Below, piece by piece: positions 7,342 through 49,760 of a stretch of 64,000 bases of DNA (position 1 is its first letter; every line of letters starts with the position of its first letter). Location of the stretch: assembly GCA_964016885.1 (NCBI GenBank), contig OZ024742.1, forward strand, positions 24,118,001 to 24,182,000, read 5' to 3'. A program made the position numbers and the translations under genes. This DNA comes from Eledone cirrhosa (lineage: Eukaryota). A model generated the notes under the pieces. That model saw only the letters and a program-made list of their open reading frames with translations, searched no databases and was not told the origin of the DNA.

Positions 7342-7951
7342 TGCTATGTGGTATAGTGTGTTGTGCTGTGATGTGGTGTGGTGTGGTGTGGTGTTGTGAA
7401 GTGTGGTGTAATGTAGTATGGTATAGTGTGTTGTGCTGGGCTGTGGTGTAGTGAAGTGTGATGTGATGTAGTGTGGTATAGTGTGTTGCGCTGTGGTGTG
7501 ATGTAGTGTGGTATACTGAAGTGTGGTGTGATGTGTGGTATAGTGTATTGTGATGTGGTGTGGTGTGTTGCTGTGTGGTGAGGTGTAGTGCAGTGAGGTG
7601 TGGTGCGGTGAGGTGAGGTGTGGTGGGGTGCGGTGCAGTGACGTGAGGTGCAGTGAGGTGTGGTGTGGTTCTTCATCTTTCTCTTCCTCGTCTTCGTCTA
7701 TTTATTCACCTTCTTCCTTGTCGTCGTCTTCATCTTCATCTTCATTTATAAAACCATATTTATTTCGTTATATATATTTCAGGGATAACATATTAACAAT
7801 ATGCTATGCCTTCCTCAGACAAAATACAATATAAACAGTTTTATAGATAAATAGATTCGACATACCGTAACAACATCGACTTGTATTTGAAAAGGTTGAT
7901 TTGATTTGTTTAATATTGTATATATATATATATATAGTTTTAATATAGATG

Positions 7952-8002
7952 AGATTCTACAGGACTAGAACTGTTTCATTCATTAGAAATCATCAGGAAT
8001 CT
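7952..8002 (-). ncRNA. Type I hammerhead ribozyme (PLE-A 3' end)
   Basis: agattc-CTGATGA-tttctaatgaat-GAAA-cag(ttctagtc)ctg-TA-gaatct. Confidence 0.8.
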
Positions 8003-8479
8003 GGGTATCAAAAAATAAAAATGGTATTTATAGGTCTCTACAAGTGGTAGGAGAGGGTGGGGAGTGGGATGGGTGCAGGTCATTGGTTGATAGAAAAGGG
8101 AATTCACTAAAAGCTAATTCTACAAAGCTATAGTTTATTTTTATTTATTTATGTTTTTAGAGTAACAAGGGCAGACAGAATTCTATAAACAGGTTCCGGA
8201 TGGCATACCATTCCTTGTCATTAAGTTTCTCTTAAGCTAACAGATGTCTATAAAATCAGTGGGGGGTCAGTCATGGTCGATAGAATTGAAGAAAAGGGAG
8301 ATTCTTTAAAAGCTAAAATCATTAAGGTTCTACTAAGTGACAAAGGTCTAGAGAATTCCGTAGACAGATTCAAAATACTGAGTGCATATCTTACAATTAT
8401 CTTCGAACTTCTCTTAAACTAATCAACTGTATGCCAAAAATCAACAGACACATTCACAAAAAAACAAAAAAACATACTC

Positions 8480-10270
8480 ACTCACACACTTACGCGCAAC
8501 CATAAACACACACACAAACACATATACACACATAAAAACACACACACATATATAAAAATATATTCATATACATACATATACATACACACATACATACATA
8601 CATACATATATATATATATATATATATATGTATATATATATATATACACACACACACCTATATACATACACACACACATACACATATACACACACACACA
8701 CACATATATACACATATAAATACACTCACACACATACATACATACACATATATATACACACACATACGTATACAAATATATATATATATATATATATATA
8801 TACATATATACATACACACACATATATATATATATATAAAAAAAAACCCACATACACACACATATATACATATACACACATACATACACACAAACACACA
8901 CACACACATATATATACATATACATATATATATATATATACATTCATATATATAACCATATACATATATACATATATACACACATATATATATATATATA
9001 TATATATAAATACACATAAACAAATATATACACATACAAACACACACACACACATACATACACACATATATATATATATATATATATATATATATATATA
9101 TACACACACACACACATATACACATATATAAGGAAAAAGCACCATACATACATATATATATATATATATACATATATATACATACACACACATACATATA
9201 TATATATATATATATATATATATATATATATATATATACACATATACACACACCCATATATATTATATATACACATATATATACACATATATACATATAT
9301 ATATATATATATATATACACATATACATATATATACACATAAATATATACATATATATATAAATATACACACACATACATACATACACACACACATATAT
9401 ACACACATATATATATATATATATATATATACACACACACACACACACATACACATGCATATGTATAAATATTTATATATATATATATATATATATATAT
9501 ATATATATCCATATATATACAAACATACACATACATACACAGACCTATACATAAATATACACATATATATACAGACATATAACGCATATATACACACATA
9601 TATACATATATATATATATACATATATATATACACACACGCATACACACATACACACACACACACACAAATATATATACACACTCTCTCTCACGCACATA
9701 TATATATATATATATATATATATATATATACATATATACATATATACATATACACATTTACACATATATATATATACACACACACATACACATCCATATA
9801 TATATACATATACATATATATATATATATATACATATATATATATATATATATATATACACACATATATACATATATATATATATATATATATACACACA
9901 AATACACACACACATATATATATATACACACCTGCCCACACAACTATATATATATATATATATATATATATATATATATACACACACACACGCGCGCACA
10001 CACATACACACATACACACACACACATATATATATATATATATATATACATATATATATATATATATATATATACACATACACATACATATACATACACA
10101 TACATACATACATACATACATACACATATATACACATATATATATATATACATATATATACACATATATACATACATATACATACATAAATATACACACA
10201 TAAAACACATATACACACAAACATATATATATATACACATACACATACATATACACACATACAAACAAAT
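8480..10270. repeat. Compound (TA)n/(CA)n/(TACA)n microsatellite inside the PLE-A 3' region
   Basis: Direct inspection. Confidence 0.95.
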
Positions 10271-10461
10271 ATATACACATACAAATAAATAGGTACTCAA
10301 TAAATATACGCATATACGCAGGCACATAAAGACACCTCTGCAGGCAGAAAATGTAGATACGAAAGAGGTACTCACATAACCATAGTGGCCGTATTTCAGG
10401 TTGAGGAGTGGTGGGGGTAGGGTGGGGAGGAGGTATAGGGGTCAATAGGGGGAGGTCGTTT

Positions 10462-11566
10462 TTAGCCATCGGGCTTTAACACTGGCTTAAAGTGTTTGAA
10501 AGTTGCAAAGTTCTTGTGCATGCAGTTCGGGCAGTGTTCAGAGAGTTTGTTCAGTAGCGGGCCCTTGGCGAATAAAATTTCGTAGCTCTCTGAAATACAA
10601 AGGTCGCAGCCCTTGTGTCCTCCGTTGTAAGAGCGCGCTTTCTGGAGTATTTTCCATTTAAGCGTGAAGGGGGTGGAGTTCCTTTTGAGGTCCCAAACGT
10701 AGGAGGCGAGTGTTGTCTGATTTGATTTATCCGGTCTTATGAAGGAGTGGGTATGGGCATACCAACGGGTCTTAAAGTTGTTGGAGGTCATGCCGATGTA
10801 AGTTTTTTTGCAATCCTCGGTGCTTGAGATGACATCGCATTTGTATACGATGTCATTTGTGAGGCATTTGTTTTCAAGTGGGCATGCTTCCTTATTTAGG
10901 CAATTACATAGAGCCCCAGTCCGGGGATTGGTTTCGGAGGTGGTTGGCTTATTTAATTTAAAATTGTGGTTGGCTATATTCCTAGCTAGGTTAGGTGTGG
11001 TGGAGTAAGACAGTCTTATAGTGTTCTTATTAAAGATGGTGTAGTACCTATGTTGTATGGGGAAGTGTAATTTCAGTAAAGTGAAGAAAATCCTAGCTAT
11101 CGGAGTAGATACCTCTCTATTGAAGGGAGGGTTGTACCAGCTAATCTGCCTATGTCTATTCCTCCTCTGCATCTTGCGGTGGTTTCTAGGTAAGTTATCT
11201 TATCTTTAAATCCGCTACGGGCGAGGGCGTCATTGTAGTAGGAGGCAGATGCATTAAAAATATCTTTGTTGGCGGAGAGGCCAGATATTCTAATAGAGAC
11301 GCTTTTTACTAGGTTATCAGTGATGTTTTGGGGGTGGTTTGAATTAACATTAATATATTTAAGGGACTCGTTAGGTTTGTGGTACGGGTAATAGAGGGAA
11401 GTATCTAGGTCGAGAGTGACATCTAAGAAGTTGGCCCTAGTCAAATTAGAATATATAGTTATACTAAATCCTAGATTAGAGAAGAAAGAGCTTAAGTTTT
11501 TCCGAAACCCATCGGTGGTTCTGGGGTTAACCTTATGCAGGGCGAAGAGGCCGTCGTCTCGGTATA
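10462..11566 (-). pseudogene. PLE RT/GIY-YIG endonuclease, frameshifted near 11170
   Basis: YRDDGL, FLDVTLDL, YINVNSNHP, WYNPPF, IVYKC...TYIGMT...FKTRWYAH, CDLCISE. Confidence 0.9.
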
Positions 11567-48059: not shown

Positions 48060-48352
48060 TGTTGAAAGATGGATAATGCTATAAGCAGACCTTACAATAT
48101 TGTACCACAATTTTCCTTTGTGCAAAAGTGGGCAGCCGAATTTAGGAAACGATAGGGGATTATTGAAGATGACCCAATGTCTGGACGTCCTACAACTGCC
48201 ACTACCGAGGAAAACATTGATCTCAGTACTGCAACACCGATGGAAGAAGTGTGTGGAACGCAAGGGAGACTATGTTGAAAAATAAACCTCATTTGGTCAC
48301 ATTCCATGAGAGTATCTTTGACAACCTATGATATTTTCAGTCAACCCTCGTA
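48060..48352 (+). mobile_element. Internally deleted Mariner remnant with 3' TIR
   Basis: EDDPMSGRPTTATTEENID joined to RWKKCVERKGDYVEK*; ends AACCCTCG-TA. Confidence 0.8.
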
Positions 48353-48389
48353 TATATATATATATATATATATTATTGATTAGGCGATA

Positions 48390-48499
48390 CCCGCTGATGA
48401 AGCCACATAAGCCGATTGTGCATTGTTGCATAATATATGCAGACAGATGGTGCAGTGCACCTTGCTGCTGCATTAGTGTGAGAGAAAATCGAATCCGGG
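48390..48499 (+). ncRNA. Paralogous hammerhead with intact core but eroded stems
   Basis: cccg-CTGATGA...GAAA-atcgaa-TC-cggg. Confidence 0.6.
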
Positions 48500-48677
48500 A
48501 ACCTTATAGGCACCCGTTTTACGTGTGTTGTGTTGAGGCAAATAACTATGTGTATACTCTGGTAATGTATCTTACATTGCCCATTGAGTGCGCTGAGATA
48601 CAACCGGTACTGGCACTGATACATATGCTGGGTCCGTCAAACCTTATTATATATATATATATATATATATATATATA

Positions 48678-49760
48678 AGCGTGTCCCGCATGTGCAACCC
48701 CAAATAACTAGAGAGACACATACAACACTTCATCCACCGTATGCAGTTCTCTGGTTACAATCAGAGAGATAAGATCAGAGTATATAGAGGATCCACAACC
48801 AAATGGGAAAAAATGGTAAATAATGATACAAATGGGACCTGCCCCTTTTATAGGAGCAAATTTTGGAATAGAATAGAAATAACTAGGAATAAGGTTAATA
48901 GAATAAACTCATGGTATGATAGCAATAAATACCAGAGTGCAATGTTCATCAATACAACCCCTAGAGGTGAATTAGCTTACAAATTTAGAAGGGCCCTAGA
49001 TAAACATAAACTCAATATTAAGATAGTAGAAAGACCAGGTACCTCCATAAAAACACTTATTAGCAATACATACCCTTTTCAAAGACCTCCCTGTATAGAT
49101 AAGGAATATATAATCTGTAAACTAAGCCCCCATATTAACTGTAAAACTAGAAATGCAGTATATAGCATAAGATGTACTGAAGGTCAACGTACAGATAAGA
49201 ATATAGTGTACATAGGTGAGACAGCACGTAGTATAGGAGAACGGATAAATGAACACTGGCGAGAGCTTCAAGATAGTAAAGAATCATCTGTACTCCACCA
49301 ACATGCTAAAATAGAACATAAGAGTAAATTAGAGAACATAGAAATAAAAATAGAATCTACAATCAGAAAAGACGCAATCACAGAGGCAATAAACATAAAT
49401 GAACTCTAACCAAAATTAAATAGAAAATATGAATGGAATAGCATCATCACAACTTACAATTAAGGACAAAATGAGAACACACACACACACACATAGAACA
49501 AACAACCAACCAGTAATATCTAAATAAACAAATAAATAAACAAATATAAACAGACACAGACACCCGGATGTAACACATGCGCAAATTAAGCACACAACAC
49601 ACACAAAAACAAGATGGCGTAGGACAGAACAAAGGGGAGGCACAAAAACAAAGAAAAGAAAAGAATCCCCAGTCACTGAAGAGGTCACAGAATGTGTGAC
49701 GAAAGAACTTTGACAATATATTAACAATCGTCTGGTTGTGGAACCAACCAATCAACCTGA
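48678..49760 (+). mobile_element. Penelope-like element 3' fragment (PLE-C); GIY-YIG ORF 48741-49409
   Basis: TPRGEL, KIVERPG, C..C...C, AVYSIRC...VYIGETARSIGERINEH, ITEAINI. Confidence 0.85.
49672..49714 (+). ncRNA. Minimal type I hammerhead at PLE-C 3' end
   Basis: gtca-CTGAAGA-g-gtcaca(gaatg)tgtgac-GAAA-gaac-TT-tgac. Confidence 0.75.

Follow-up and report, generated by a model that had tools for sequence, protein, structure and literature searches.

The 64,000-nucleotide stretch of Eledone cirrhosa DNA analysed here (GenBank assembly GCA_964016885.1, contig OZ024742.1, positions 24,118,001 to 24,182,000; hereafter the window) carries a series of hammerhead ribozyme motifs in and beside the remains of Penelope-like elements (PLEs), mostly next to TA microsatellites. 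An initial inspection of the letters alone (the sequence-only reading) had listed 11 such copies from about six families, attributing them to a diverse set of microsatellite-associated PLEs, possibly with non-autonomous, retrozyme-like derivatives. Both strands were scanned with a type I descriptor ([CU]UGANGA, a stem II region of up to 130 nt, GAAA, stem III, UH and stem I), and a motif passed at a score of at least 10 and a stem I of at least 3 bp. Nine of the 11 listed motifs satisfied the descriptor, showing the core CUGANGA...GAAA...UH, three helices and an open stem I; block-wise dinucleotide-shuffled windows gave a mean of 0.28 matches and a maximum of 2 (60 shuffles). The listed positions agreed with the descriptor spans to within 2 nt, being identical for the starts at 7952, 11582, 21719, 25752, 29831, 42663 and 49672 and slightly shifted for those at 37914, 38110 and 12077 (listed as 37916, 38112 and 12078). 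The family B motif (core 12106) fitted solely with a 2-bp stem I, and the motif at 48390 (family E copy 2) did not fit because its stems II and III are mutated. The 11 copies reduce to six insertions, given that A and D form head-to-head pairs and that C and E include local duplications. The six listed families are indeed distinct, but two more had been overlooked, namely G (core 7818, minus strand), which also satisfied the descriptor, and X (core 39588, plus strand, CAGAAGA), as had three broken half-motifs, the first at 24155. Weak descriptor matches at 10401, in the 15748 region, at 57558 and at 57661 were regarded as chance. Among genomic copies, the descriptor was passed by 25/30 for E, 29/30 for C, 16/25 for F, 20/20 for G and, at a stem I of at least 2 bp, 20/20 for B. 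In an Rfam scan of the window, hammerheads were absent among the 150 of 259 matches listed, which were dominated by microsatellite-driven microRNA matches. All features are collected in Table 1.

Table 1 Hammerhead-bearing and related features of the window, in window coordinates. Clade names are those suggested by protein motifs. ORF, open reading frame; UTR, untranslated region; RT, reverse transcriptase.
Feature	Position	Strand	Details
Family G, solo end of Hydra-clade PLE	7744..7903	-	Hammerhead 7761-7826 (core 7818) with palindromic stem III, predicted to cleave after 7769; other sequence stands in place of the 3' part
Family A main arm, 3' UTR and hammerhead	7937..8517	-	Hammerhead 7952-8002, core 7996; U-U at stem II base, 4-bp stem III; short 3' end in (TA)n
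5'-truncated Hydra-clade ORF remnant, two frames	10462..11597	-	RT YRDDGL and thumb, CxCX5C linker, GIY-YIG endonuclease
Family A inverted arm	11561..11712	+	Hammerhead 11582-11632, core 11588; ~65-nt 3' tail, end in (TA)n
Family B, Neptune-type endonuclease end and ~1.6-kb CA-rich 3' UTR	11989..13781	-	Hammerhead 12077-12108, minimal, with core 12106, a 2-bp stem I and ACGU as stem III; 3' end lies in (TA)n
Family C copy 1, solo Hydra-clade PLE end	21670..21866	-	Hammerhead 21719-21830, core 21826, 85-nt stem II region; includes inverted last 35 nt of own tail
Half-hammerhead, broken (CUGAUGA lacking both GAAA and stem III), attached to PLE tail	24140..24267	+	Repeated with cores at 28296 and 32247 through tandem duplication
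Family C copy 2, local tandem duplication	25702..25899	-	Hammerhead 25752-25863
Family C copy 3, local tandem duplication	29781..30069	-	Hammerhead 29831-29942, then partial inverted copy 30013-30069
Family D head-to-head pair, one insertion	37879..38301	both	Short arm (-) hammerhead 37914-37984, long arm (+) 38110-38180; ~85-nt tail on long arm; both arms start ~70 nt upstream of core
Family X, end of Hydra-clade PLE	39543..39744	+	Hammerhead-like fold 39583-39634, core CAGAAGA (U4A)
Family E copy 1, positions 466-835 of 835-bp unit	42551..42920	+	Hammerhead 42663-42772; C3U in this copy, 83-nt stem II region, palindromic stem III
Duplicated truncated fragment of family F ORF	42958..43495	+	
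Family E copy 2, positions 561-835 of unit	48373..48647	+	Decayed hammerhead from 48390
Family F, 5'-truncated Neptune-type PLE	48678..49926	+	ORF with RT thumb, CX4CxxC linker and CCHH GIY-YIG domain up to 49409, then 3' UTR; hammerhead 49672-49714, core 49676, 3' end in (TA)n

We consider, with a probability of about 85%, that the motifs are type I hammerhead folds in the pseudo-long terminal repeats (pLTRs) of at least seven unrelated PLE families plus one ORF-less passenger element, family E. All families have many dispersed genomic copies, with 3' ends fixed in (TA)n and variable 5' ends. First-look searches of the animal's own genome returned 2771 candidates for E, 1934 for C, 1816 for F, 3579 for B and 1134 for G, which are not copy numbers, as only 40 candidates of each family were scored; an exact 25-mer of family D had 22,318 genome matches and a control 25-mer had 0. 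A same-strand ORF lay within 2.2 kb upstream in 12/44 motif matches of C, 10/34 of G and 17/32 of F, and in 0/29 of the main E cluster. In family C, about 500 nt of UTR precedes the hammerhead and follows a GIY-YIG ORF (loci L056, L058 and L059). In L061, the family D hammerhead terminates a unit of 3.5 kb that has a 766-aa frame, and a further ORF link occurs in L074; the G hammerhead terminates a 3.85-kb unit. The endonuclease of X lies about 950 nt upstream in three loci (L185, L036 and L226), and family B endonuclease text was found in 7 of 19 loci outside the window. Since C and D are continuous with UTR and ORF in other copies, their apparent ORF-less islands in the window are truncated ends, and of the three islands that the sequence-only reading had described only E is genuinely ORF-less. 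E abuts the F ORF only through a nested insertion and is not linked to it. Family A is one insertion, with a main arm and ORF remnant on the minus strand and an inverted, tailed arm that adjoins the 5' break of the ORF; the remnant at 10462-11597 is likely the body of this insertion.

Protein motifs refine the expected diversity of microsatellite-associated PLEs into two types. DKT and RW occur in D and G, and the CxCX5C linker in A, C, D and G; C-terminal CxxC and CxH without CCHH are found in A, C and G and in the C-terminus of D (L061), and X carries the Hydra motifs (DKT, CxCX5C, CxxC and CxH, no CCHH) as well. The RWK motif position reads RWI or RWR in these proteins. According to these motifs, and not to a tree, A, C, D, G and X appear to be Hydra-clade families (A probably), in which (TA)n insertion and a partial tandem or inverted arm with a tail were also observed. 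B and F would be Neptune-type, judging from the CX4CxxC linker, CCHH and endonuclease after the RT in their translations (L225 for B; L223 and L224 for F), with Neptune a provisional choice over Nematis. Pfam gave no name to the GIY-YIG domains of the window. A Naiad link for the families with a long stem II was set aside, given that C is Hydra-type and none is shown for E.

The Hydra clade of PLEs with a C-terminal endonuclease (EN+) includes Hydra-1_Obim of Octopus bimaculoides (Craig et al. 2021, PMC8557442), and the consulted portions of that paper describe the same DKT, CxCX5C linker, lack of CCHH, CxxC/CxH around E and N, and (TA)n insertion, as well as a type I hammerhead with palindromic stem III, an inverted 5'-truncated arm and a tail. 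In contrast, the families and hammerhead sequences here are others, the UTRs measure 0.5-1.4 kb or more, and the tails are roughly 55-145 nt compared with the 30-40 bp described there; the 85-nt stem II region of C, the U4A core of X and the tens of thousands of copies differ further. B and F share with Neptune-type PLEs, as far as these are covered in the sections of Cervera & de la Pena 2014 (PMC4209133) that we draw on, the CX4CxxC linker, the CCHH endonuclease after the RT, the extra base before stem II and a minimal or ACGU stem III, whereas the stem III of F is not a strict palindrome. The same sections describe a 2-bp helix I for D. virilis Penelope, the presence of several hammerhead families in one genome, and pairs on opposite strands separated by 100-700 bp.

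The fold itself is conserved across families. Absence of stem covariation had been named as what would speak against ribozymes, and the stems do covary across 23 recurrent families (19 duplicate or window-own loci were excluded): stem I positions 4-6 were paired in 54 of 69 cases, compared with 29 in permutations (0/20,000 permutations reached 54), in a test that is partly circular because the score filter includes stem I length. Palindromic stem III inserts were present in 13 of the 23 families, in 12 different sequences. Copies within a family showed scattered decay only. Stem III duplex energies were -10.5 and -10.7 kcal/mol for the D and E palindromes, -3.2 for G, -1.7 for B, -1.1 for C and +1.4 (that is, none) for F, and the stem III of A can close alone. 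The palindrome energies fit the dimer model presented in the part of Cervera & de la Pena 2014 referred to above. For B, a distal stem I pairing about 30 nt downstream was considered; it is energetically possible and was rejected for want of covariation.

Several points weigh against our interpretation, in addition to the circularity and the motif-based clades just mentioned. Many mismatched base pairs occur at the foot of stem II, the stem I of B has only 2 bp, and the stem III dimers of C and F are weak, and therefore ribozyme activity may be low; moreover, according to Li et al. 2026 (bioRxiv 10.64898/2026.07.22.740005), only one of nine tested dimers cleaved. The link between UTR and ORF in family A comes from the window alone, as no other locus examined had both.

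Family X departs from the canonical core. Its CAGAAGA (U4A) was found in 14 of the 14 distinct copies that reach the core, such that U4, taken as invariant, is replaced throughout. The X anchor had 11 matches in 580 kb of arbitrary loci, which suggests tens of thousands of copies. The consulted text of Perreault 2011 mentions U4C as a variant in a viroid, and also a U-U pair closing the base of stem II, with U4A absent from it. No report of a natural U4A core was found in the literature, where published variant compilations may already list such cores. A further very abundant (TA)n-inserting repeat, family Y (L063, L066, L159, L161, L164 and L254, all outside the window; 15 matches in 580 kb), forms head-to-head pairs and has a GAAA-loop hairpin at its 5' boundary. 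No hammerhead core was seen in it, L254 and L106 have a Hydra-type endonuclease upstream of it, and it is a candidate for a different structured RNA.

We then asked how the window compares with the 3.0-Gb assembly, which consists of large chromosome-scale contigs with TA-rich repeats. In 58 stretches of 10 kb at chosen round-number positions (580 kb), 52 descriptor matches were found, compared with 1-6 in shuffles; that is, roughly one motif per 12 kb, which extrapolates to about 250,000 motifs genome-wide (bootstrap 160,000-356,000). For the axolotl, 126,247 hammerheads are reported in the consulted part of PMC7229834, and a genome of 28 Gb in that of Li et al. 2026. No report of cephalopod-wide hammerhead counts was found in the literature. 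Insertion is directed to TA microsatellites: (TA)4+ or (TTA)4+ lay within 300 nt downstream of 32 of the 42 strong motifs in arbitrary loci, as against 492 of 1914 background windows. The sequence-only reading had presented the window as a cluster. Its 11 raw matches in 64 kb (one of them likely chance) do exceed the roughly 5.7 expected at the sampled rate (P 0.08), as a special hammerhead cluster or functional locus would; but after collapsing pairs and duplicates the count was 7 versus 4.5 expected (Poisson P 0.17; resampling P 0.19), and the window has twice the average microsatellite content, which motif matches follow (rho 0.52). The window density thus matches the genome background, a special cluster was rejected as most improbable, and the families were likely gathered here because all insert into TA microsatellites.

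Family E is a unit of 835 bp (cut from locus L020) with 42% GC and a longest stop-free frame of 104 codons; in a tblastn search against six PLE baits its best match had E=0.078. Its 3' end was fixed in TA/TTA in 28 of 30 loci and its 5' ends were scattered, and 0/30 loci had inverted arms. The unit start was preceded by its own 3' end via a TTA spacer in 25 of 30 junction-selected loci, a figure that overstates the tandem rate because the query carried junction bases; in the other locus set only 3 of 29 non-window copies had an upstream E copy, and both points count against us. Of the 25 upstream partial copies, 12 extended past the cleavage site, some loci having two hammerheads, and no array of three units was present within +/-1.5 kb of the junction-selected loci. 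The two window copies share an E-(TA)n-F junction with 96.7% identity over 850 bp, and contigs of two sequencing runs, of unspecified kind, aligned on E gave many diverged copies. That no autonomous partner was found among the fetched loci is a further adverse point. Taken together, these data support E as the only non-autonomous family here, a retrozyme-like passenger, which likely borrows PLE enzymes.

Whether those enzymes could instead come from a long interspersed nuclear element (LINE), for example of the R4/Dong or RTE type, with E as a passenger similar to a short interspersed nuclear element, was weighed as well. TTA repeats at the 3' end and tandem junction of E, the lack of inverted arms in its 30 loci, unlike the Hydra families, and the failure to find a PLE with a matching end would all suit such an origin. 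Nevertheless, the fixed internal 3' end, the partial head-to-tail tandems and the dimer-type hammerhead about 150 nt from the end are PLE hallmarks, and Li et al. 2026, in the sections used here, ties such units to pLTRs; a LINE partner is therefore doubtful. As a PLE passenger, E resembles the animal non-LTR (long terminal repeat) retrozymes in the covered parts of PMC7229834 and Li et al. 2026 in having no ORF, a type I hammerhead, partial head-to-tail repeats and 42% GC, and its 835 bp fall inside the 51-972 bp range given there. It is longer than the retrozyme circles of about 170-400 nt in these sources, and circles of E are only conjectural. It also differs in that its copies are scattered through (TA)n as truncated monomers and partial dimers, with no long arrays seen, and in its 83-nt stem II region. 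Li et al. 2026 themselves, in the same sections, describe retrozymes as non-autonomous PLEs. Further hammerhead families (L062:6338, L132 and L177:6768) have stem II regions of 92-115 nt and palindromic stem III, with no ORF link seen.

What holds in outline for E might be extended to all the short islands, which would then be independent non-autonomous mini-retroelements able to cleave themselves, form circles and spread from their own template. Tandem hammerhead repeats of retrozyme-like, head-to-tail arrangement do exist elsewhere in the genome (528 bp at L188:6637-7693 and 467 bp at L185:5601-6068, ~98-99% identical), the 5' boundaries of short C, D and X copies show a preferred position, and a solo pLTR that carried an internal promoter could be amplified again in trans. 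However, C and D run unbroken into UTR and ORF in other copies, their boundaries precede the hammerhead and do not lie at the cleavage site, and they form head-to-head pairs, not head-to-tail arrays. We consider this extension unlikely, and the retrozyme-like derivatives anticipated at the outset are accordingly confined to E, the C and D islands being 5'-truncated ends of ORF-bearing elements.

The boundaries of the copies offer some insight into how such ends arise. Full-length G and D have the order hammerhead, two alternative 3' ends, ATG, ORF, UTR and hammerhead, and therefore an island corresponds to the 5' UTR of the next unit. In C, 11 of 30 5' ends fell at -16 to +9 with the hammerhead intact (the query was wholly downstream of the cleavage site), and only 1/30 lay near the cleavage site. 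For D, the first 100 listed matches contained 32 head-to-head pairs, 10 of which had both arms ending near -70; 23 of 40 X rows ended at -14 to +14, and 14 of 21 anchored G arms ended within 8 nt, the G query being biased by junction bases; 1/30 G copies ended near the cleavage site. An initiator-like YYA(+1)NW is present at every pile-up site. The consulted parts of published work describe a TCACT resembling an initiator in a pLTR, together with solo pLTRs (PMC3846280), and an internal Penelope promoter (PMC2377424). Junction sequences were ambiguous as to an extra, cap-derived G. Besides the bias of the G query, two observations weigh against so simple a picture of transcription starts: ORF-spanning G copies stopped at the pile-up site in 1/30 and ran further upstream in 18/30, and F and E had no clear 5' pile-up.

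The main rival to the transcription-start reading is that the pile-ups mark RT drop-off or microhomology, with U-rich tracts or the 5' edge of the hammerhead fold as the sites concerned. In A, C and X, the boundary falls on the 5' strand of stem I, a T-rich run precedes every site, the D site is a 6-bp palindrome that could fold back, the ends are ragged over about 10 nt, and the ORF-spanning G copies mostly pass the site. On the other hand, a drop-off site should halt long cDNAs too, the D (-70) and G (-84 to -92) sites are well away from the fold, and the common YYA(+1)NW and the published promoters likewise speak against it. We regard drop-off as a serious contender that falls short of an even chance.

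If the sites are transcription starts, the following route may be proposed. Transcription would start at the initiator-like site at or shortly before the hammerhead, and a lone hammerhead would stay uncleaved, as its palindromic stem III needs a second copy. The element protein would nick TA-rich DNA, and reverse transcription would begin from one or the other of two internal sites that lie behind the hammerhead. Where the RNA is uncleaved, the cDNA would run off at the RNA 5' end to leave a solo island of 0.15-0.4 kb or a head-to-head pair. RNAs with two hammerheads would either cleave as a dimer and circularise or be read-through multimers, giving longer-than-unit copies with scattered 5' ends, and E could be mobilised in trans by the same route. 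One long-ended and one short-ended arm were present in 6 of 7 C pairs, which fits the two internal RT start sites that explain the tail of the Poseidon element PAc of Anolis in vitro (Frangieh et al. 2024, PMC11167929, in the part drawn on). That part likewise places the hammerhead of PAc just before or at the ORF start and makes uncleaved RNA the main substrate; by comparison, the support here comes from genomic copies, whose 5' ends pile up ahead of an intact hammerhead, and concerns another clade. It also finds the hammerhead unnecessary in vitro, and the consulted part of Craig 2021 (PMC8557442) calls the hammerhead role in PLEs unclear.

Apart from the PLE ends, the window contains other repeats. 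At 21661-33480, a unit of ~4.1 kb lies in three tandem copies, 94-96% identical, containing family C, an RTE-like 3' fragment and the broken half-hammerhead. An almost intact ORF of a non-LTR retrotransposon, with RT and zf-RVT assigned by Pfam and a restriction-like endonuclease motif seen by eye, spans 17426-20950 (+), with one stop at 20450-20452; its end precedes (TA)n, and a second fragment lies near 43540-44808. Pfam also detected a LINE remnant (apurinic/apyrimidinic endonuclease and RT) at 13918-16824 (-), an LTR-retrotransposon integrase fragment at 33460-34740 (+) and an abundant LINE fragment with RT and PHD at 35499-37112 (+). We take the first of these to be CR1-like, and the class names of all three are presumptive. 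A 48-bp tandem satellite occupies 59406-64000 (~96 copies, 95% matches).

The window itself is ordinary repeat debris, and most of its copies are probably inert. Hammerheads in PLEs, targeting of TA repeats and a Hydra family from octopus are already published, and the consulted part of an Octopus vulgaris repeat annotation (PMC13282606) lists 31 recently active Penelope-like families, with ribozymes unmentioned there; less ordinary here are the density, the U4A family and the 5' boundaries. The genome contains young families of very high abundance, whose copy boundaries can be compared with the position of the cleavage site. It also supplies a natural variant of the core (X) and, in E, a retrozyme-like unit of 835 bp, and long-stem-II forms such as C and E would escape short descriptors. 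We tentatively suggest, as a proposal that may well prove wrong, that the roughly 250,000 hammerheads, denser than any printed count found, record two routes, in which uncleaved single-ribozyme RNA would yield 'strong-stop' solo pLTRs, their 5' ends being set by the transcription start, and cleaved circles would yield longer-than-unit copies. If this is true, the U4A core fixed in X, one of the most prolific families, would either be a new variant of the core that is active or show, from a natural case, that cleavage can be dispensed with.

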